NCBI GenBank assembly: GCA_944393375.1
Contig: CALXZX010000001.1
Location: 6,988 to 70,987 of the forward strand
DNA from: an uncultured Clostridia bacterium
GTDB taxonomy: Bacteria; Bacillota; Clostridia; TANB77; CAG-508
Direction of reading: 5' to 3'
DNA length: 64,000 nucleotides
The position numbers and the translations under genes are program-made. Under the pieces are notes generated by a model. That model was given only the letters and a program-made list of their open reading frames with translations, was not told where the DNA came from and did no database searches. Of this stretch, positions 41,171 through 50,471 are shown in pieces; the first letter of the stretch is position 1, and each line of letters opens with the position of its first letter.

Positions 41171-41866
41171 CTATTCTTCTTCAAATATTTTATCTGCTTC
41201 TTCTTGTGTTAAATATTCATATTTAAGCATCTTATTTAATACTTGTTTTTGCCTTTGCTTTGCAAGTCCTGGATTGACAGTTGGTGCATATACACTTGGT
41301 GCATTGGGTATTCCTGCAAGCATAACACATTCTCCGTCTGTCATTTCATTTGGATTTTTTCCAAAATATCCTCTTGAAGCTTCTTTTACAGTATCATATC
41401 CGTTACCAAAATAACTAGTATTTAAGTACAATTCTAAAATTTCTTCCTTACTCAAATTTCTTTCAATTTTAAATGCCATAAACATTTCTGCAATCTTTCT
41501 AGTCATCTTTTTTTCTTGTGTAAAATATATATTTTTTGCCAATTGTTGTGTAATGGTACTTCCACCTTCTACATAACTCATTGCTTTTAAGTCATTGATA
41601 AATGCCCTTCCAATTGCTATGATATCAATTCCTGGATGTTGATAAAATCTATGGTCTTCTACACTAATGATTGCATCTAAATAGATTTGTGGTAATTCAG
41701 AAAGTTCTGTATAATTTTCTTTTTCTTGTATTTGTTCTACTTTATCTTCAAGTGGTATATTCTCTATTGCCTCCTTATACATACTATATCCATTTCCTAC
41801 AAATAATAAAGCAATACTTAATAAAATTAATACTACTAAACATACAACTTTTAGAAATGCTTTCAT
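41171..41866 (-). CDS. mtgA: Monofunctional peptidoglycan glycosyltransferase (GT51)
   Basis: EDHRFYQHPGID and GGSTITQQLAKN GT51 motifs with N-terminal TM. Confidence 0.85.
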   Translation of the reverse strand: MKAFLKVVCLVVLILLSIALLFVGNGYSMYKEAIENIPLEDKVEQIQEKENYTELSELPQIYLDAIISVEDHRFYQHPGIDIIAIGRAFINDLKAMSYVEGGSTITQQLAKNIYFTQEKKMTRKIAEMFMAFKIERNLSKEEILELYLNTSYFGNGYDTVKEASRGYFGKNPNEMTDGECVMLAGIPNAPSVYAPTVNPGLAKQRQKQVLNKMLKYEYLTQEEADKIFEEE

Positions 41867-41903
41867 TTTACCACCTCATTTCTTTCTCCTTATTTTACTC
41901 CTT

Positions 41904-42257
41904 TTATTCTACATTCATTTCTGCTTTTACAGCTTCAGGCAATTCTTCTTTTTGGACTTCTTTCCAATTAGTAACACCTCTTATAGACATCACTTCTAAT
42001 TCTAAATAAGCATCTTCCCTCAATTCTCTAGATGTTTTAAATTGAATTTCTTTTTCTTTTCCATTTTTGCTATATGCCATTAATGTATATTGATATTTCA
42101 TATCATCATTACCAGATAATTCTTCTATTTTTGTATTATCAATTTGTGTATAATACAAAGATTTATGAATACATAAGAAATAATAGGCACCTATCATTAA
42201 AGCAATGACAATAATGACTGCAATTATAATTGGAATTTTTTCTTTAAAATCTTCCAT
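41904..42257 (-). CDS. YxeA-family small membrane-anchored protein (BceAB-associated)
   Basis: 117 aa, TM + DUF1093-like domain, immediately downstream of BceB-like permease. Confidence 0.55.
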   Translation of the reverse strand: MEDFKEKIPIIIAVIIVIALMIGAYYFLCIHKSLYYTQIDNTKIEELSGNDDMKYQYTLMAYSKNGKEKEIQFKTSRELREDAYLELEVMSIRGVTNWKEVQKEELPEAVKAEMNVE

Positions 42258-42260
42258 TTT

Positions 42261-44357
42261 CTATTCCTCCTCTTTAATAATGTTCTTGCTACCAATATAT
42301 GTTGCTAAGAAATATAATCCATAGATGATACCAATAATAATAGCAGTTACTATCACAGAAGGTAATAAATCGCTTGGAGATGCTAATGCAGCAAGCATTG
42401 ACAATATAAATTTAATTCCAAATATAGAATGTATAATCGCAAGAGCTAATGGTAACATGAAAAATATAAATATCTGTCTAAATAATGCTCGATTGATCAT
42501 CTTTTCATCACAACCGATTTTTCTTAAAATGGTATATCTTTGTTTGTTATCAGAACTTTCTGTCAATTGTTTTAATGCTAAAATGGCAGAACTTGCAATT
42601 AAGAAGATAACCCCTAGATAAATCGCAATAAATATGATAATGGTTGCTAATCCTTTACTTGCTTCTATTAAACTAATTTTTGTCATTCCATCTAGCTCTA
42701 TACCTTTTTGATCTAAATTGTTCAATAGTGTATTATTCTCTGCTTCTGTAAATGTTTTTTCTATTTCTTCTTTTTCTTCATCTGTTTCGGCATTATAATT
42801 TGCTGCTAAAAATTGTTCTTCTTTCCATTCTTCTTTTAATTCAAAACTATCTGGAACTAATATAATTCCTGTATTCACATGACTTGTAGACATTTCAATA
42901 AATCCACTTTTACATTCGTTATATTTAGCATGTAAGGTTTTTCCATTAATTTGTATGGTTGCGCTTTCTTTTAAGGCTTGATTTCTTAATTCTTTCATAT
43001 TATCGAAATCGCAAAGTACAATATATTCATCATTATTTAGGCTATATTGTTCTTGCCCATAAAGTTCTGCAATTTTATTATAATCTGACACTTTTATAAC
43101 TTCTTCTGGCATATCATACAAAAGCATTGAAAATTGTGCTTTTGCTTGTTCATAATAATTTCCTAAACTATATTTCAAAGTCCATTCAGGAATCGCATAA
43201 ATTGGAATTTCCACAACATCTTTCAATAAATTCATATCATATCCATTGGTTTCTAATGTATAAGAGATTGGATATTTTGAATCTTCAATTTGTTCTTCTG
43301 TAGGATATATCATCTGACCTGTATAGGAATCTTCATAACTTTGTGGTAAATTAGCAGTCTTATATAAATTAACATCTACTGGCGTCATTTCTTCCAATTC
43401 TGAATCCAATGAATTTTGTATAGATAAACTACTAGATAAAACACTTATCGTCATAAATAGCATTAAGCAAATAACAGACATACTGATAACGGTTGTATTT
43501 ATCTTATTATTTAATTGTCTTAATACAAACATATTGGTTCCTTTTAGATATATCTTTTTTCTTGTTTGTATGATTCTTAATATAAATCCTGATAAAGACC
43601 AGAATACACCTATTGTTCCTACAATTCCCATTAAAATTGGCACTAACATTTTTTCTTCTGTATTTAATTCATAGATGCCACCTGTAACTATATAATAAGC
43701 ATATCCTAACAATCCTGCTGAAATTAAGAATATGATAATAGAGATGATTGGATTTTTAATTTTTACTTTTTCATTTTTTCTAACAGCTGTCAATAAATTA
43801 ATTAATTTGTATCTTGAAATAGTAAGTGTATTAAATATCATAACAGCTATATACATAACTGCAAAATAAATACAAGTTTTAATACAAGCATCTTTTGAAA
43901 ATACAAAGGTGAATTCACTCATATCTGCTTGAAAAAGTTTAGCTACTAGTATAGACATAAATTGAGAACCAAATACACCTATAAAAATACCAACAATTAA
44001 TGAAATGATTCCTACTAATATGGTTTCTATCAATATAATTTTTGATATCTGCCTTCTTCCCATCCCTAATGTCATATAAATACCAAATTCTCTTTTTCTT
44101 CTATTTACTAAGAAGTTATTAGCATATACAATTAAAAATCCAAGTACAATGGCAATAAATACAGATACCATTCCTAACATACTAATCATGAGTTTTATCA
44201 TATCTCTTGTGGATTCAGACACTTCTAACATAGCTTGTTGACTATCTAAAGAGTTAAACATATAAAAGATAGCAACACCTAATACTAATGTTAAAAAATA
44301 AATGGCATAATCTTTAAAACTTTTTTTCATGTTTTTTACAGATAATTTAAATAACAT
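42261..44357 (-). CDS. BceB-type ABC transporter permease (FtsX-like, 10 TM with large extracellular loop)
   Basis: 698 aa, FtsX-fold repeats, overlaps upstream ATPase gene. Confidence 0.85.
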   Translation of the reverse strand: MLFKLSVKNMKKSFKDYAIYFLTLVLGVAIFYMFNSLDSQQAMLEVSESTRDMIKLMISMLGMVSVFIAIVLGFLIVYANNFLVNRRKREFGIYMTLGMGRRQISKIILIETILVGIISLIVGIFIGVFGSQFMSILVAKLFQADMSEFTFVFSKDACIKTCIYFAVMYIAVMIFNTLTISRYKLINLLTAVRKNEKVKIKNPIISIIIFLISAGLLGYAYYIVTGGIYELNTEEKMLVPILMGIVGTIGVFWSLSGFILRIIQTRKKIYLKGTNMFVLRQLNNKINTTVISMSVICLMLFMTISVLSSSLSIQNSLDSELEEMTPVDVNLYKTANLPQSYEDSYTGQMIYPTEEQIEDSKYPISYTLETNGYDMNLLKDVVEIPIYAIPEWTLKYSLGNYYEQAKAQFSMLLYDMPEEVIKVSDYNKIAELYGQEQYSLNNDEYIVLCDFDNMKELRNQALKESATIQINGKTLHAKYNECKSGFIEMSTSHVNTGIILVPDSFELKEEWKEEQFLAANYNAETDEEKEEIEKTFTEAENNTLLNNLDQKGIELDGMTKISLIEASKGLATIIIFIAIYLGVIFLIASSAILALKQLTESSDNKQRYTILRKIGCDEKMINRALFRQIFIFFMLPLALAIIHSIFGIKFILSMLAALASPSDLLPSVIVTAIIIGIIYGLYFLATYIGSKNIIKEEE

Positions 44358-45114
44358 CGTTCAAATCACCTCCAAGAAGTGTTTGTACTTCAATTATCTT
44401 TTCAAAGAATTGTTTTCTAGTATCTTCTCCTTTTACTAACTCATTAAAGATTTTTCCATCTTTAATAAAAATAATCCTATCCGCATAACTTGCTGTGAAA
44501 GCATCATGTGTAACCATTAAAATAGTTGCTCCTAAATTTCGATTTAAGTGTTCAAAAGTTTCTAATAATTGTCTTGCAGATTTACTATCTAGTGCACCTG
44601 TTGGCTCATCTGCTAAAATCATTTTTGGATTTGTGATAATGGCTCTTGCTGATGCCACCCTTTGTTTTTGTCCACCTGATATTTGATATGGATATTTATT
44701 TAAAATATCTGATATTTCTAGTTTTTCTGCTACTTCTTTTACTTTTTTATCAATTTCATGTGCATTTACTTTTTGAATGGTTAATGCCAATGCTATATTT
44801 TCATAAGCAGTTAATGTATCTAATAAATTAAAATCTTGGAATATAAAGCCTAATTCTTCTCTCCTAAATTTGTTTAATTTATTCCCTTTTAGTTTCGTAA
44901 TATCTTGGTTATTAATAATAATCTTTCCTGCTGTTACTCTATCAATCGTTGAAATACAGTTTAATAAGGTTGTTTTTCCTGAACCTGACGCACCCATGAT
45001 TCCAACAAATTCCCCTGTTTCTACATTAAAACTAATTCCTGCAATTGCTTTTGTTAAATTGGATTTGTTTCCATAGTATTTTTCTATGTTTTTCACTTCT
45101 AATACATGACTCAT
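44347..45114 (-). CDS. BceA-type ABC transporter ATP-binding protein
   Basis: GASGSGKTTLLN Walker A, LSGGQKQRVASARAI signature, ILADEPTGALD Walker B. Confidence 0.9.
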   Translation of the reverse strand: MSHVLEVKNIEKYYGNKSNLTKAIAGISFNVETGEFVGIMGASGSGKTTLLNCISTIDRVTAGKIIINNQDITKLKGNKLNKFRREELGFIFQDFNLLDTLTAYENIALALTIQKVNAHEIDKKVKEVAEKLEISDILNKYPYQISGGQKQRVASARAIITNPKMILADEPTGALDSKSARQLLETFEHLNRNLGATILMVTHDAFTASYADRIIFIKDGKIFNELVKGEDTRKQFFEKIIEVQTLLGGDLNDVI

Positions 45115-45186
45115 ATATATAAACCTCCATTTATCTTTTATTCTGTATTTATTATACGGCTTATTCTTTTTTCTTTCTATTGTTTA

Positions 45187-45215
45187 ATCTTACATTTAGA
45201 TTACATTTTTGTAAG
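45187..45215 (-). promoter_or_regulatory. Candidate BceR-type response-regulator box TTACA-N4-TGTAA (+ third half-site TGTAAG) upstream of bceA-like gene
   Basis: Minus strand ttacaaaaatgtaatctaaatgtaag ~30 nt upstream of TATAAT at 45151-45156. Confidence 0.4.
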
Positions 45216-45258
45216 AAAGGCGTGCGTTAAAGAAATTAAAGATTTCTATATATAAAGA

Positions 45259-45289
45259 AAAGGTAAGATATTTTTTGTATCTTACCTTT
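45259..45289 (-). terminator. 12-bp perfect stem hairpin (aaaggtaagata-N7-tatcttaccttt) downstream of TA operon
   Basis: Seen directly; insulates TA module from bceA promoter. Confidence 0.45.
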
Positions 45290-45533
45290 GATTAGTTTAA
45301 TATAATACTATACCTCTTTTTATATATTTATTTTTACTTTTAAACTATTTCTTTTAGTCATTTGTTGATATCTTAAATTTTATAAATTTATTTTAAAAAA
45401 TCTATATTATGATATTATTTATAAAATTATTCTAAAATTTATAATATTCTTATCAATCTTTATTATTATTCACTCCTAACTTTTATGAATTATTAGTCTC
45501 CTTATTTATCTATTAAATTATAAAAATATAAAT

Positions 45534-46559
45534 TTAAAATTCATTAATTTCTTTTGCAAATGTAAATGGTATAATTTCATTATCTTTTGTTTCTATATAT
45601 GCTTTTTCTTTATGCATATAGTCAGAAATTTCATAACTTTTATAGTTTTTAAATTTATTTATAACTCTATCTATAATTTCTTTTTCTTCTTTTTTTAATT
45701 TTTTTATTTTATATTCTTCATTGAATTGAATTCTATATTCCTCATATTCACTTTCATTGATAAATAAATTAGATTTTATTGAAGATAATTCGATAATCTC
45801 TCTATGTCCTATTGGTAAAGCACCATATGGCATATGCTCATAAACTAATCCTGTAATCGTATATCCATTATTTTTATAACTCAAACTATCTATATACCAT
45901 AATAACTTCATTAATACAACTTTTTTCGTTGGTCCCATTTCTTTTGTAATATATCCTAATACATTTGTTAGATTTCCTATATCTAATACTGTATTACCAT
46001 TTATAATAGATTTTTCATTATATTGTATATACTTTGCAATTAATTCTTGTTCATTTAAAAAACTAATAATATTTTTATCAATCACTTCTTTGATATTTTT
46101 TTCAATTTCATCATATCGTTTAAACTTACTCCTATTCTTTTCTAATAATTTTAAAGCAAATAATGGATTATCATTCAATTCTCTAATCATATTATCAACA
46201 CTAGCATCTTGAATTTGTTTTGTTTCATATCTTGTTATAGTAATTTCACCTAAATTTAATAAATATGCCATTTCACTTTGTGTTAATTGATATTTCTCTC
46301 TTATTTTTTTTATTTCTTTTGATGTTAATAAATCTTTTTTCTTTCTATATTCATCTAAACTATTAATTAAATTAACATTCCACAAATCTCCAGACATAAA
46401 TATATTATTGTCTGGATATTTGTCACATTTATAATATAATTCTCTATATTTAATTTTTTCTCCTTTTATGATTGTTTCTCTTTCTTCTTCAATTAAACTA
46501 ACATCATGGTTTTCTTCACAAATAGAACAAAACATATTTACTTTCTTTAATTCTTTCAT
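45534..46559 (-). CDS. Antitoxin-like protein: MqsA-like Zn-ribbon + XRE-HTH N-terminus fused to Panacea (DUF4065)-like C-terminal domain
   Basis: MFCSICEEN...YYKCDKY Cys ribbon; LTSKEIKKIREKYQLTQSEMAYLLNLGEITITRYE matches MqsA HTH; C-terminal KKVVLMKLLWYIDSL...LVYEHMPYGALPIGH resembles DUF4065 core. Confidence 0.55.
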   Translation of the reverse strand: MKELKKVNMFCSICEENHDVSLIEEERETIIKGEKIKYRELYYKCDKYPDNNIFMSGDLWNVNLINSLDEYRKKKDLLTSKEIKKIREKYQLTQSEMAYLLNLGEITITRYETKQIQDASVDNMIRELNDNPLFALKLLEKNRSKFKRYDEIEKNIKEVIDKNIISFLNEQELIAKYIQYNEKSIINGNTVLDIGNLTNVLGYITKEMGPTKKVVLMKLLWYIDSLSYKNNGYTITGLVYEHMPYGALPIGHREIIELSSIKSNLFINESEYEEYRIQFNEEYKIKKLKKEEKEIIDRVINKFKNYKSYEISDYMHKEKAYIETKDNEIIPFTFAKEINEF

Positions 46560-46564
46560 TTTAT

Positions 46565-46969
46565 TTATTCTACCTCCTTTCCTCTATACGGAAATCTAGT
46601 TGTCTCATATTGAGCATAATGAAATGACATACATAATATAACCTTACTATCATAACTTTTGATTTTTATTTTTATATATACCTGTTTTTGATTATATATT
46701 TTAGAAAATACATAATAATCTCTTGAATTTCGATTTCTTTTATCTGGACAACATTCTACATATTCACTAAGCTTCAATTTTTTTAGTTCTTCTTTTACAT
46801 CTTCTGTTTCAAATCCCAAATCTCTTAGGCAATATTCTGTTGAATATTCTATTGGCTTATCTTCTCTTGGCATAATATCTAATCTTGATTCAGGAATTTT
46901 TAATATGTTTCTTACTTCTTTCAAAAATGTTTCTACATTTCCTTTTGTTGCTTGATATCCTTCTGCCAC
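46565..46969 (-). CDS. MqsR-like toxin (mRNA interferase family) candidate
   Basis: 134 aa; C-terminal QVYIKIKIKSYDSKVILCMSFH parallels MqsR YLKITVIHDVLIVSFK; toxin-first gene order as in mqsRA; GTG start with RBS aggaggtaaag. Confidence 0.45.
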   Translation of the reverse strand: MAEGYQATKGNVETFLKEVRNILKIPESRLDIMPREDKPIEYSTEYCLRDLGFETEDVKEELKKLKLSEYVECCPDKRNRNSRDYYVFSKIYNQKQVYIKIKIKSYDSKVILCMSFHYAQYETTRFPYRGKEVE

Positions 46970-46990
46970 TTTCTTTACCTCCTGTTTGCA

Positions 46991-47045
46991 TTAACTATCA
47001 ATTGATAGTTAACATCAGTATACACCCCATTCATAATTATGTCAA
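46991..47045 (-). promoter_or_regulatory. TA-operon promoter (TTGACA-17-TATACT) with 22-bp perfect palindromic operator TTAACTATCAATTGATAGTTAA just downstream
   Basis: Seen directly on minus strand; palindrome 46991-47012 overlaps the transcription start region. Confidence 0.55.
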
Positions 47046-47106
47046 TACTTTTATAGAAATTAATGATGCATTTAGAAAATGTCTACATCCTTTAACATCA
47101 TTCTAA

Positions 47107-48123
47107 CTACTTCAAATTCGTATAACTATTTTTAGGGAATATAATCCTTACTTCTGTTCCTTTATCTTTCTCTGAATTTAATTCTATTCCAAGACTTAAT
47201 TTATCACATAATTTTTTACACAAGTATAAGCCAATTCCAGTAGATTTTTGTCCTATCAATCTTCCATTTTCTCCTGTAAAACCTCTTTCAAATACTCTTG
47301 TAATCTCTCCTTTTTTTATTCCAATTCCATTATCTTGTATATATAAAATCACTTTATCATTTTTTGATCTTGCAAATATCTCTATTTTCTTATTTTCGTC
47401 TTTGGAATATTTAATTGCATTTTGTATAATTTGATTGATAATAAATGTTGCCCATTTACTATCTGTATAAACTTCATGTTCTAAATCTTTTAATTCTAAT
47501 GCCACTTTTTCATTTAGTAATGTACTTTTATTTTTTAATATAGCACCATTTACAATTTCTTTTAGATTGGTTTTTGTGATGATATAATCTTTTTCAACAG
47601 CATTACTTCTTGCATAAAATAAGGCTTGTTCTGTATAATTTTCTACCTTGTCTAGTTCTTCATCTATACTTTTAGTTACTTCATTTTTATGGTTTTCAAT
47701 AATCATTTTACTTGCCGCAATTGGTATTTTTACTTCATGAATCCATAATTCTATATATTCTTTATAATCTTCTTGAATACGTTTATAGTAATTTACATTT
47801 TCAATCATAGACTTTCCTGCATCTTGCATCACTTCTTTTAAAATTTTGCCTTCTGAAAAGTTAGCATTTTTGATAATTTCAGAAATCAAATACTTTTCGT
47901 GTAAATCTTCCATATTATTTTTTAATTGATTATAAAAATGTTGTTTTCTTTTATATTCAACAAATATGGAAATAGCAATGACAATTATGATAATAGCAGC
48001 TATGTAAATTTGTGCAATCATTCCAATATGATAAGCAAGTAATAATATTTCTATACTAATTAATGCCAATATAACAGTTACAATTAGCAATACTTTATCT
48101 TTTATAAAATCTTTAAATTTCAT
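47107..48123 (-). CDS. Sensor histidine kinase (BceS-like, intramembrane-sensing)
   Basis: Two N-terminal TM, HisKA and HATPase_c motifs (...DNGIGI...GTGIGL). Confidence 0.85.
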   Translation of the reverse strand: MKFKDFIKDKVLLIVTVILALISIEILLLAYHIGMIAQIYIAAIIIIVIAISIFVEYKRKQHFYNQLKNNMEDLHEKYLISEIIKNANFSEGKILKEVMQDAGKSMIENVNYYKRIQEDYKEYIELWIHEVKIPIAASKMIIENHKNEVTKSIDEELDKVENYTEQALFYARSNAVEKDYIITKTNLKEIVNGAILKNKSTLLNEKVALELKDLEHEVYTDSKWATFIINQIIQNAIKYSKDENKKIEIFARSKNDKVILYIQDNGIGIKKGEITRVFERGFTGENGRLIGQKSTGIGLYLCKKLCDKLSLGIELNSEKDKGTEVRIIFPKNSYTNLK

Positions 48124-48815
48124 TTTAACAAATACCCCTGTCCTCTTTTCGTTTCTATTCTATCATGTAATCCTAATTCCTCTAATTTAGTTCTTAGTCT
48201 CTTTATATTGACATTTAATGTATTATCATCAATAAATTCTTCGCTTTCCCATAAATAATCCATGATTTCATCTCTTGATACTACTTCATTCTTATGAGTG
48301 CTTAAATAGTATAAAATATTATATTCATTTTTTGTTAAATCCATTTTCTCATTATCTTTTTCTATGGCTCTTTCTGCTATATTTAATACAAAACCATTAC
48401 AATCAATTTTTTCTGGGTTTCTTCCTGCATTTTGATTTCTTTTTAATAAACCATTTATCTTTGCAAGCAATATTTGTATGTTATATGGTTTTGTAACATA
48501 TTGGTCTGCTCCATAATTTAGGCTCATTAATTCATCAATTTCATTATCTCTACTTGTTACCATAATAATTGGGACATTAGATACTTTTCTTACTTCTTTG
48601 CAAACAAATTCTCCATCTGTATATGGCAAATTGATATCTAATAATACCAAATCAGCTTTTTCTTCTAGTATATCTTGTATCGTATTATCAAAGTTTTCTA
48701 ATGTTTTTGCTTTAAATCCATTCTTATTTAGAAATGTTTCTAACTCTTGCCTTAATTTTTTATCATCTTCAACAATTAATATTTTACTCATATCTCTCTT
48801 TCCTTTATTTATCAT
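48120..48815 (-). CDS. OmpR-family response regulator (BceR-like)
   Basis: Receiver LIVEDD...DLVLLDINLP, winged-helix C-terminus. Confidence 0.9.
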   Translation of the reverse strand: MINKGKRDMSKILIVEDDKKLRQELETFLNKNGFKAKTLENFDNTIQDILEEKADLVLLDINLPYTDGEFVCKEVRKVSNVPIIMVTSRDNEIDELMSLNYGADQYVTKPYNIQILLAKINGLLKRNQNAGRNPEKIDCNGFVLNIAERAIEKDNEKMDLTKNEYNILYYLSTHKNEVVSRDEIMDYLWESEEFIDDNTLNVNIKRLRTKLEELGLHDRIETKRGQGYLLK

Positions 48816-48847: not shown

Positions 48848-50434
48848 TTATTTCGTCAAATGTTTTAATTTTATTAAAGCATTAAATTCTTCTTCAAGCT
48901 CTTTTTTTCTTTTATCATCTTTTGTCATTGCTAGTTCTGAAGTAATTTGTGATAGTTTAAAATCTAATAATAGTTTATCATTTTCATGATGATTTTGTTG
49001 TTTTTTACTTTTTTCTTTTTCATATTGTAAATAAGAAGAATAATTTCCTTCATATTCTACGATTTTATGATTTTTTATCACTAAAATATCTGTTGCAATA
49101 TGATCAATAAATGCTTTATCATGTGTAACAAATAAAATCGTTCCATTATATTCTGTTAATAGCTTTTCTAAACTTTCAATTGATTCTATATCTAGAAAAT
49201 TAGTAGGTTCATCTAATATAAGTAAATGATTGTCTGATACTAATATCTTAGCAATCGATACTTTTACCCTTTCTCCACCACTTAAATCTTTTATCTTTTT
49301 TTCCAAATCTTTATCTTTAAATAGAAGATTGGCTAATGTGTTTTTTACAACCATTTCTGATTGATTCGTATCTTGCATCACATTTTGTAATACATTTTTA
49401 CTAAAATCTAAGTTTGAAAAATCCTGTGAAAAATAGCCTATTTTTATATTGGGATTTACTTTTATCTGATGATTACCATTTATGATTTGGTTTATAAGTG
49501 TTGTTTTTCCTGCTCCATTTTCTCCTATTAAAGCTGTTTTTCTATTGGTTTTTACAACACAACTTGCATTTTCAAATAACAGTTTATCTCCTAATTTTAT
49601 ATTTAAATTTTCAATATATATTGCAATTTTATTTTTCATTCTTTCTTCTGTTTGATATTTCATATATATTTTTTTATGATTTTGTGGTTTTTCTTTTACT
49701 TCTAATTTATTTAATCTTGTCTGTAATGCATTTGTGTGTCCTTCCAATTTTTCTCTTATATTTTCAACACCTCTTTTATGTAGTCTTGCCTCAGAATTTC
49801 CCATTCGCTTTGGTGTTTTTCGAATTTCTTTTGCTGTGTTTTTTGAAACATGAATTGCTTTTTCTAACCTATATTTTTCATTTATATATTGCATATATTC
49901 AAATTCTTCTCTTTTTACTTCTGCCTCTTTTTGTAACTTATATTTTGAATAATTGCCCTCATATCTTTTTACTTTTCCATCTTTTATTTCAATAATTGCC
50001 GTACAAATTTCATCTAGTAAACTTCTATCATGAGATATGATTAGTATCGTTCCTTGATATTTTTTTAACTCTTTTTCAATATGAGTAATTCCATTCTTGT
50101 CTAAATTACTTGACGGTTCATCTAGTAATAGGATTCCGTTTTTATCTAATACTTTTTTATGAAATGCTTCTTTCTTTTTTTCTCCACCACTTAAATTCCT
50201 ATTTTCATAATTGATTTTTTCAAATTGCTCCATATATATGATATTTTGCTTACGAATGATTTTTCCTGTATCTGGTTGTATTCTTCCAGCTATGATGTTT
50301 AATAATGTGGTTTTTCCTGAACCATTTTGTCCTACAATTCCTATTTTTTCATTTTCATATATTTTTAAATCGTCAATTTCTAATATTTTTCTATCTCCAT
50401 AATTTTTTGATATATTTTTTAATTCTAATACCAT
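48848..50434 (-). CDS. ABC-F family ATPase with ~100-aa inter-domain linker (candidate antibiotic-resistance ARE ABC-F; ribosomal protection type)
   Basis: Two ABC cassettes without TMD (GQNGSGKTTLLN... / GENGAGKTTLIN...), Lys/Arg-rich linker KYRLEKAIHVSKNTAKEIRKTPKRMGNSEARLHKRG; likely start MVLELKN at 50434 with SD aaaggaggag. Confidence 0.8.
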   Translation of the reverse strand: MVLELKNISKNYGDRKILEIDDLKIYENEKIGIVGQNGSGKTTLLNIIAGRIQPDTGKIIRKQNIIYMEQFEKINYENRNLSGGEKKKEAFHKKVLDKNGILLLDEPSSNLDKNGITHIEKELKKYQGTILIISHDRSLLDEICTAIIEIKDGKVKRYEGNYSKYKLQKEAEVKREEFEYMQYINEKYRLEKAIHVSKNTAKEIRKTPKRMGNSEARLHKRGVENIREKLEGHTNALQTRLNKLEVKEKPQNHKKIYMKYQTEERMKNKIAIYIENLNIKLGDKLLFENASCVVKTNRKTALIGENGAGKTTLINQIINGNHQIKVNPNIKIGYFSQDFSNLDFSKNVLQNVMQDTNQSEMVVKNTLANLLFKDKDLEKKIKDLSGGERVKVSIAKILVSDNHLLILDEPTNFLDIESIESLEKLLTEYNGTILFVTHDKAFIDHIATDILVIKNHKIVEYEGNYSSYLQYEKEKSKKQQNHHENDKLLLDFKLSQITSELAMTKDDKRKKELEEEFNALIKLKHLTK

Positions 50435-50436
50435 AA

Positions 50437-50471
50437 AAACTCCTCCTTTAATCATATTAAAGAAGGAGTTT
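50437..50471 (-). promoter_or_regulatory. Leader terminator/attenuator hairpin whose 3' arm contains the ABC-F Shine-Dalgarno
   Basis: Minus-strand RNA AAACUCCUUCUUUAAU-AUG-AUUAAAGGAGGAGUUU then UUUAUGG (16-bp stem, one G-U). Confidence 0.55.

Follow-up and report, generated by a model that had tools for sequence, protein, structure and literature searches.

The 64,000-nucleotide (nt) stretch of contig CALXZX010000001.1 analyzed here (the window), from an uncultured gut Clostridium, contains two adjacent genes inside a Bce-type antimicrobial-peptide resistance module; the first encodes an MqsR-like toxin of 134 amino acids (aa) and the second a 341-aa antitoxin of the PanA type. Comparison with other loci and contigs, which we labeled with L-numbers (L005, L008, and so on), indicated that this toxin-antitoxin (TA) pair is a real insertion in the form of a small mobile cassette. 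The pair is very likely an intact, mobile type II MqsR:PanA cassette in which the zinc-binding domain (ZBD) of the antitoxin would neutralize the toxin, a palindrome in the promoter would serve autorepression, and the Panacea domain would have a regulatory or sensor role. Its position inside the Bce module is most likely incidental.

A cassette inserted between bceS and bceA

A search with the kinase sequence retrieved species-level relatives, all of which were uncultured gut Clostridia, including Candidatus Scatovivens. We compared the spacers of 50 loci that contained both the kinase gene and bceA. In 37 of them, bceRS and bceAB were contiguous without the pair, and the gap between bceS and bceA was 104-415 bp (empty sites); three had a gap of 451-1000 bp, eight carried other cargo, and two, in addition to the window species, carried the MqsR/PanA pair. 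Using the empty site of L013, whose kinase is 93% identical, we mapped the insert to approximately 45290-47100, which places it exactly between the stop codon of bceS and the terminator hairpin. The segment shared among cassettes extends from the -35 element to approximately 10-15 nt past the antitoxin stop codon and is about 1.5 kb long. Relaxed blastn searches had suggested a conserved 3' tail of approximately 165 nt; multiple alignment identified it as AT-rich noise. Within the left junction, between bceS and the cassette, we found no consensus terminator, and the 244-bp spacer between the antitoxin gene and the terminator contained no open reading frame (ORF), no Rfam match, and no similarity beyond the L008 lineage. 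An Rfam scan of 44900-47300 yielded nothing credible; its sole match, to a snoRNA, was a chance match (E = 0.64).

The cassette was also found in three other contexts, where the toxin was 64-79% and the antitoxin 81-88% identical to the window proteins: beside a fused ABC-FtsX gene (L091), between glycosyltransferase and acetyltransferase genes (L095, L096), and in a defense-type island with AAA_21, Schlafen-AlbA_2, and Y2 transposase genes (L099-L102). The toxin and antitoxin genes stay paired in all four genomic contexts, and full-length homologs occur on fecal phage contigs (IMG/VR, GenBank). Neither a recombinase nor terminal repeats accompany the cassette. The occurrence of the cassette in unrelated contexts, together with the empty sites in the closest relatives, bears out the mobile insertion that the first-pass annotation had offered as one of two explanations.

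In the putative defense island (L099-L102, 6491-10500), the 81%-identical cassette adjoins genes for a 456-aa AAA_21 ATPase and a 190-aa partner. The same island encodes Schlafen-AlbA_2, HATPase_c_4, and SMEK_N proteins as well as the Y2 transposase, and its upstream flanks vary between contigs.

The flanking genes were identified by their domains, which confirmed the location of the pair between a BceS-like kinase and a BceAB-like transporter, and the description of the locus as a Bce-type module appears sound from the sequence. The N-terminus of the kinase, read from the sequence, has two hydrophobic helices separated by approximately four residues, as in the intramembrane-sensing type; its best NCBIfam match was the Bce-like kinase SapS (235 bits, under the equivalog cut-off of 550). 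The hairpin downstream of the antitoxin gene was one of only two terminator-like matches, against 0.2 expected, and it sits directly after bceS in the empty-site relatives L011 and L013. The possibility that it travels with the cassette was rejected, since we found it solely in bce loci, empty sites included. Its presence in the empty sites identifies it as the native bceRS terminator, which would now also end the TA transcript; thus, the insulating terminator described earlier does exist, but it predates the inserted pair and is not part of it. The hairpin, the BceR box, and the -10 element and ribosome-binding site (RBS) of bceA are near-identical to those of empty sites, so that the Bce control region has remained intact despite the insertion. 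The motif TTACAAAAATGTAA (45201-45214) in the BceR box is invariant in seven related loci and fits the ACA-N4-TGT consensus reported for BceR-like regulators (bioRxiv 10.1101/2022.11.16.516778).

The same spacer has received other genes. In L007, L064, and L040, whose kinases are 87-96% identical, the spacer equivalent to window positions 45290-47100 holds a different toxin-first pair. Its toxin is a 105-aa RelE-superfamily protein with weak YoeB and HigB matches, and its 363-aa antitoxin, which has a HEIGH/M78-like domain at the C-terminus, matches the HigA model TIGR02607 (54.8 bits; cut-off, 47.7); the pair is flanked by two copies of the hairpin that terminates bceRS. The spacer of L063 contains an acyltransferase gene, and those of more distant species contain other genes. 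Since the insertion points differ in detail, the spacer does not act as a site-specific attachment site; gene order in these loci indicates instead a permissive insertion site that has been used repeatedly in the clade.

In a number of close relatives, with kinases up to 94% identical, the 6 kb downstream of the kinase gene contain other genes and no bceAB (L015, 7003-13002; L018, L019, L020, L025, L044, and L046-L048). The region downstream of bceS appears from its gene content to be a more general rearrangement breakpoint.

The toxin and antitoxin proteins

Both ORFs lie where the first-pass annotation had placed them (Table 1), in toxin-first order and separated by a 5-nt gap. The toxin matched the Pfam model PF15723 (MqsR_toxin) with 25.5 bits (E = 1.8e-5; gathering cut-off, 26.2). 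An exhaustive phmmer search with the toxin over 1.84 billion cluster representatives yielded 254 relatives at E < 1e-3. In an alignment of 63 toxin sequences, 40 members matched PF15723 individually (E < 1e-3; best, 8.7e-8). The residues L65, I99, K100, F116, and H117 were invariant in this alignment, and Y98, C113, S115, D76, and Y70 were near-invariant; the window toxin carries all of the family-invariant residues and Y98. The catalytic residues of Escherichia coli MqsR are K56, Q68, Y81, and K96. Alignment of the toxin family with the sequence of E. coli MqsR by hhalign (E = 2.5e-5) paired Y98 with Y81, K100 with K83, and H117 with K96.

An AlphaFold2 (AF2) model of the toxin had a predicted local distance difference test (pLDDT) score of 94.9. 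When this model was compared with 350,542 chains of the PDB using Foldseek, the best matches were two MqsR chains, 3HI2_D and 3HI2_B, both with a probability of 1.00. The template-modeling (TM) score normalized to MqsR was 0.77 for 3HI2_D, with a root-mean-square deviation (rmsd) of 3.8 A; 3HI2_B gave a TM-score of 0.72 and an rmsd of 2.5 A. The matches that followed were separated from these by a clear gap (probability of 0.63 or less). Relative to E. coli MqsR, the model has an extra N-terminal helix-strand segment of approximately 35 aa. Single-sequence phmmer searches of the PDB sequences with the two proteins gave nothing meaningful, and the SarA matches that topped the PDB search with the toxin profile were judged spurious; the link between the toxin and MqsR came from the Pfam hidden Markov model (HMM), hhalign, and the fold comparison only. 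These results suggest that the toxin is a divergent member of the MqsR family with a predicted MqsR fold, in line with the first-pass annotation.

Our profile searches of the antitoxin revealed three domains. The NCBIfam model TIGR03830 (CxxCG_CxxCG_HTH, MqsA family) matched residues 11-133 with 71.6 bits (cut-off, 61.8) and covered 121 of its 127 positions, and the helix-turn-helix (HTH) region was also matched by the Pfam models HTH_3 and HTH_37; the Pfam MqsA model PF15731 scored only 20 bits, against a cut-off of 30. Within the HTH, residues T107, T109, R110, Y111, E112, K114, I116, and Q117 were invariant. The C-terminal region matched PF13274 (Panacea, DUF4065) with 81.9 bits (cut-off, 25.7) over profile positions 1-112 of 113. 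The AF2 model of the antitoxin (pLDDT 89.3) consists of a three-stranded N-terminal domain, the HTH, a long helix, and an alpha/beta C-terminal domain; its top PDB matches in Foldseek were the two chains of full-length E. coli MqsA, 3GN5_A and 3GN5_B (probability of 1.00), and the HTH also matched 3FMY (TM-score 0.74) and a HigA2 structure. A word-indexed search retrieved 832 homologs of the antitoxin, nearly all with a precomputed PF13274 match and many also with PF15731. The MqsA-like HTH and the DUF4065/Panacea domain claimed earlier were both recovered.

The zinc site was a different matter. The first-pass annotation had described a cysteine ribbon of the MqsA type, and the MqsA-like zinc domain is indeed there, but the four-cysteine site is not: three cysteines and a histidine (C11, C14, H18, and C45) were invariant in an alignment with 26 homologs, down to 43% identity. 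The first motif is present as C11-S-I-C14, and the second reads C45-D-K-Y48. From this alignment, the site is best read as C2HC rather than C4.

Promoter, operator, and surrounding features

The features of the locus are listed in Table 1. The cassette promoter, described as strong in the first-pass annotation, was the best sigma-70-like site of the region, with 11 of 12 matches, and its -35 and -10 elements are kept among homologous cassettes in unrelated contexts. The Shine-Dalgarno sequence is also kept in most cassettes of the clade; the RBS is slightly variant in L091 (AGAGG) and L100.

Table 1. Positions of the cassette, its control elements and domains, and the genes and signals around it (window coordinates unless a locus is named)
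Feature	Position	Strand	Basis or remark
Response regulator gene (bceR), OmpR type	48120-48815	-	Response_reg and Trans_reg_C
Histidine kinase gene (bceS)	47107-48123	-	HATPase_c; stop codon 47107-47109
Left junction, 61 nt, from the bceS stop codon to the cassette -35	47046-47106		Shared only with L008
Cassette promoter	47017-47045	-	-35 TTGACA (47040-47045), 17-nt spacer, -10 TATACT (47017-47022)
Putative operator, 22-bp perfect palindrome TTAACTATCAATTGATAGTTAA	46991-47012		Directly 3' of the -10, over the expected transcription start
Toxin Shine-Dalgarno sequence, GGAGG	46978-46982	-	8 nt 5' of the GTG; read from sequence
Toxin gene, 134 aa	46565-46969	-	GTG start; divergent MqsR family (RelE superfamily), predicted endoribonuclease
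Antitoxin gene, 341 aa, PanA type	45534-46559	-	Zinc-binding domain, XRE-type HTH, long helix, Panacea (DUF4065)
Antitoxin residues 1-56, three-stranded zinc-binding domain	46392-46559	-	Alignment, TIGR03830 match, model strands 2-10, 17-31, and 34-44
Antitoxin residues ~75-135, XRE/MqsA-type HTH	46155-46337	-	HMM matches, alignment, structure matches to 3GN5, 3FMY, and 5J9I
Antitoxin residues 216-321, SocA/Panacea (DUF4065) domain	45597-45914	-	PF13274
Spacer, 244 bp, 12.7% G+C, from the antitoxin stop codon to the native terminator	45290-45533		Only in the window species and L008
Intrinsic terminator hairpin of bceRS	45259-45289	-	AAAGGTAAGATA-N7-TATCTTACCTTT, 12-bp stem followed by a T-run
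BceR-type response-regulator box 5' of bceA	45187-45215	-	TTACA-AAAA-TGTAA (45201-45214) and downstream AAATGTAAGA repeat
bceA promoter -10, TATAAT	45151-45156	-	Sequence and alignment
ABC ATPase gene (bceA)	44347-45114	-	ABC_tran, 123 bits
FtsX permease gene (bceB), 698 aa	42261-44357	-	Two FtsX stretches
HigB/HigA-like pair in relatives	L007:7212-8589; L064:7221-8598; L040:7156-8536		HMM matches

The 22-bp palindrome is present as claimed, and its role as an operator is putative. It is the sole perfect palindrome with arms of at least 9 nt in the window; first-order Markov simulations of the whole window produced arms of at least 11 nt in 7.5% of cases, which leaves room for a chance origin, and the significance of the palindrome therefore rests on its conservation. 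Six cassettes of the clade in different places (window, L009, L091, L096, L100, and L106) keep the -35, the -10, the palindrome, and the start region. When metagenome and viral contigs were scanned for the 18-bp core AACTATCAATTGATAGTT, 122 loci were found. In 29 of these the identical core lies beside an MqsR/PanA-like pair only 31-53% identical to the window proteins, always within or just after the promoter, so that the DNA site is more conserved than the proteins; two of the 29 are IMG/VR contigs. The conserved, promoter-located site and the invariant recognition region of the HTH are strong comparative evidence for autorepression of the operon through the palindrome, although we infer the binding itself. 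By homology, a dimer of the antitoxin HTH would bind the palindrome where it overlaps the transcription start and repress the operon.

Most of the distant MqsR/PanA cassettes have the identical 18-bp core as the spacer that separates TTGAC(A) from (T)ATAAT, whereas in the clade of the window it follows the -10; loci with the core as promoter spacer include L109, L112, L115, L127, L138, L140, L154, L172, L178, L184, L203, and L226. These alignments indicate that the operator has shifted its position within the promoter with its sequence unchanged.

The palindromes of related cassettes are longer than that of the window. Upstream of the toxin start in L009, L091, L096, L100, and L106, in the region corresponding to window positions 46983-47020, they are perfect over 36-38 bp (38 bp in four and 36 bp in L106), compared with 22 bp in the window. 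The outer arms vary between cassettes (ATC/GAT, ATT/AAT, ATA/TAT, and GTT/AAC) and yet stay perfectly symmetric. Symmetry maintained by compensatory changes hints at a constraint on DNA structure beyond simple repressor binding; cruciform formation, template-switch correction, or an extended operator may be the cause. A hairpin at the 5' end of the RNA is an unlikely explanation for the outer arms, since the predicted transcription start lies within the left arm.

Approximately 90 metagenome loci contain AACTATCAATTGATAGTT and no TA pair. Eleven loci have two copies of the 18-mer, 726-791 bp apart (L120, L121, L129, L130, L133, L135, L166, L185, L186, L188, and L190). ORFs were read in one of these, L121, where a copy stands in front of each of two tandem genes resembling those for extracytoplasmic function (ECF) sigma factors, with no MqsR/PanA gene nearby. 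The two-copy loci were rejected as TA operators and appear to use the motif in an unrelated way.

Around the Bce module, the gene directly upstream of bceR (48848-50455) encodes an ABC-F family ATPase and is shared only by the closest relatives. The genes that directly follow bceB (41171-42257) encode a DUF1093 protein and a monofunctional peptidoglycan transglycosylase; DUF1093 comes after bceB in many relatives, and the transglycosylase does so in the few contigs that are annotated. The ABC-F, Bce, DUF1093, and transglycosylase genes may form an extended envelope-stress gene cluster. Several relatives have approximately 57 extra nt, with a possible TTG-start leader ORF, between the promoter and RBS-like site of bceA and its start codon (L011, 7230-7290; L010, L008, and L007); this segment is absent from the window (45112-45130) and L013.

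Alternative readings and comparison with known systems

The first-pass annotation regarded the combination of an MqsR-like toxin with a fused MqsA-HTH/Panacea antitoxin as an unusual TA architecture. It is not unusual: the MqsR:ZBD-HTH-Panacea arrangement has been published, dissected experimentally, and is routinely annotated. The MqsR-like domain is the commonest recognized toxin domain beside Panacea antitoxins (n = 90; Kurata et al. 2022, PMC8832971), and DUF4065 was predicted in 2013 to be an alternative MqsR antitoxin (noted in PMC8832971). In the MqsR:PanA pair of Bacillus fungorum, the ZBD or ZBD-HTH neutralizes the toxin, Panacea or HTH-Panacea does not, and residue Y97 of MqsR is essential (Ernits et al. 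2023, PNAS, PMC10440598). The Prokaryotic Genome Annotation Pipeline (PGAP) labels full-length homologs on Clostridium plasmids "type II TA system antitoxin MqsA family protein".

By homology with E. coli MqsRA and B. fungorum MqsR:PanA, the 134-aa protein would be an mRNA endoribonuclease, and its active site would hold Y98 (corresponding to Y81 of MqsR and Y97 of the B. fungorum toxin), the invariant K100, and H117. As in E. coli MqsRA and the B. fungorum pair (PMC10440598), the N-terminal ZBD of the antitoxin would bind and neutralize the toxin. The Panacea domain would not be the neutralizer; it is probably a sensor or regulatory module that would free the toxin on a cue such as phage infection.

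Several points weigh against this reading of the pair. The PF15723 score of the toxin falls 0.7 bits short of the gathering cut-off, and a profile of the 63 toxin sequences did not retrieve MqsR from the PDB sequences. Residues K56, Q68, and K96 of MqsR are not conserved as such, K56 being replaced by Glu72 and K96 by His117. The fourth cysteine of MqsA is absent from the antitoxin and from all 26 homologs aligned. The role of Panacea as a sensor is a published hypothesis rather than a result (PMC10440598), and a Herbaspirillum MqsR:PanA pair was not neutralized in E. coli (PMC8832971).

A role in phage defense by abortive infection, in which Panacea would sense a phage cue and unleash the RNase and the spacer would form a miniature defense hot spot, is a tentative and somewhat unlikely alternative. 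Such a role is plausible in itself and compatible with a type II TA mechanism. It is consistent with the occurrence of the toxin with its 81%-identical antitoxin beside AAA_21, SLFN_AlbA_2/HATPase_c_4, and Y2 transposase genes, with homologs on phage contigs, with the HigB-like and HigA-HTH/M78-like pair that L007, L064, and L040 carry in this spacer, and with the sensor hypothesis (PMC10440598). However, the PADLOC defense models gave no significant match, and carriage by phages would be just as compatible with a selfish or addiction role. A related reading, which we consider quite unlikely, would make the spacer a recurrent landing pad where sister species swap cassettes of a toxin-first gene and a long, sensor-bearing antitoxin, forming a micro defense island within an antimicrobial-peptide resistance operon; as part of the same reading, the lack of a terminator between bceS and the cassette might leave expression partly coupled to the envelope-stress two-component system.

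The pair might also be an inactive relic, with a toxin that is no longer toxic and an antitoxin kept as a stand-alone repressor or anti-addiction factor. Relatives have lost the toxin in two independent events, each of which spared the promoter, operator, and antitoxin: the site that carries the toxin gene in L096 is cleanly devoid of it in L103-L105 (L103:4840-5010, L105:925-1095), and in the bce locus of another species (L106-L108) toxin residues 45-104 are deleted, including Y98 and K100 (L106:4793-4988, L108:354-549). Loss of the toxin with the antitoxin kept is the expected path of decay for a costly toxin and was also read as a sign of a working TA. The toxin also evolves two to three times faster than the antitoxin: identity at the aa level between the window and L008 or L009 was 77-78% for the toxin and 93-94% for the antitoxin (77% and 94%, respectively, for L008 alone). 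The outer arms of the palindrome are degraded in the window, where 22 bp remain, compared with 36-38 bp in relatives. Nevertheless, six independent metagenome contigs carry both ORFs in intact form, identical or nearly so, and both genes are under purifying selection, with dN/dS ratios of 0.17-0.34 for the toxin and 0.09-0.14 for the antitoxin; a ratio of 0.2-0.3 for the toxin indicates constraint. The invariant toxin residues and Y98 are present, and the promoter, RBS, and operator core are intact. We consider a relic very unlikely.

Among the toxin genes compared (window 46565-46969, L008:7155-7559, and L009:7162-7566), the first ~100 nt were the most divergent (70% DNA identity). In L005 (4525-5113), from the same species as the window, the toxin gene diverges wholly after approximately codon 61, near the contig end; this may be a rearranged allele or an assembly chimera. 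Since it may be an assembly artifact, we left it out of the count of toxin losses.

The second explanation offered in the first-pass annotation, a stress-linked addiction module tied to Bce, found no evidence of a functional link. Integration with the Bce system would mean that read-through from bceRS or envelope stress controls the toxin, or that the antitoxin HTH regulates bceAB. Because no consensus terminator separates bceS from the cassette promoter, bceRS transcripts could run into the pair, and the cassette occurs at the bce locus in L008, L009, and L106 and next to the fused ABC-FtsX gene in L091 as well. Such integration is nevertheless very unlikely indeed: 37 of the 50 related Bce loci lack the cassette, other unrelated cargo occupies the same spacer, and the cassette brings its own promoter and operator and is also found where there is no transporter. 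Moreover, the palindrome occurs once in the window and not near bceA, and the BceR box and bceA promoter do not differ from those of empty sites. Neutralization of the SocA type (type VI), in which Panacea, the domain of the ClpXP adaptor for SocB (PMC8832971), would hand the toxin to ClpXP without inhibiting it by binding, is barely credible, since the PanAT pairs tested assemble into stable complexes and count as type II (PMC8832971), the B. fungorum ZBD alone neutralizes and Panacea alone does not (PMC10440598), and the ZBD is strongly conserved in the family of the window antitoxin.

An intact type II MqsR:PanA cassette is a clean negative with respect to novelty: a pair that looks exotic by its sequence alone belongs to a known, dissected, and automatically annotated class. 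The residual interest lies in the swapping of cassettes at a hot spot, the natural toxin-loss derivatives, the C2HC variant, and the symmetry-preserving changes in long palindromes. The related cassettes, with an identical operator core and shifted promoter geometry, are natural material for questions on PanA, as are the C2HC zinc variant and the two toxin-deletion derivatives, in which a ZBD-HTH-Panacea protein stands under its own promoter. Sister species also hold empty, MqsR:PanA-filled, and HigBA-filled versions of one chromosomal site. Such material could help to identify the cue sensed by Panacea and the way in which TA cassettes that run from promoter to stop codon spread in the absence of a recombinase.

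The closest known systems are the B. fungorum MqsR:PanA pair and the MqsR-like PanT group of Kurata et al., which share with the window pair the toxin-first bicistron, the MqsR-like RNase toxin, and the ZBD-HTH-Panacea antitoxin; the catalytic tyrosine Y97 of the B. fungorum toxin corresponds to Y98 of the window toxin. Compared with the B. fungorum pair by its published description, the window pair comes from an uncultured gut Clostridium and lies inside a Bce module. The C2HC zinc site is a feature of the window pair and its alignable homologs, down to 43% identity. E. coli MqsR/MqsA (3HI2, 3GN5, 3FMY) resembles the window pair in the toxin fold (TM-score 0.72-0.77), the toxin-first order, the zinc domain followed by an XRE HTH, and the palindromic operator in its own promoter. 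However, the window toxin has the extra N-terminal segment of ~35 aa and His117 in place of K96, and the window antitoxin has a C-C-H-C site in place of C3, C6, C37, and C40 of MqsA and carries an additional ~200-aa linker and Panacea domain. The E. coli MqsA operator is of the ACCT-N(2-4)-AGGT type, and the window operator AACTATCAATTGATAGTT differs from it in sequence. SocA/SocB of Caulobacter, the type VI system with the founding Panacea protein, shares the PF13274 domain; unlike the window antitoxin, SocA lacks a ZBD and HTH and is a ClpXP adaptor, and the SocB toxin is unrelated and the gene order different. The HigB/HigA-type cassettes of L007, L064, and L040 are likewise toxin-first, with a RelE-superfamily toxin and a long antitoxin composed of an HTH and a C-terminal accessory domain, and they occupy the same bceS-bceA insertion region. 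Their sequences are unrelated to those of the window pair; they have an HExxH metallopeptidase-like (COG2856/M78-like) domain and neither zinc ribbon nor Panacea, and they were inserted on the other side of the terminator hairpin, where its duplicates flank them.

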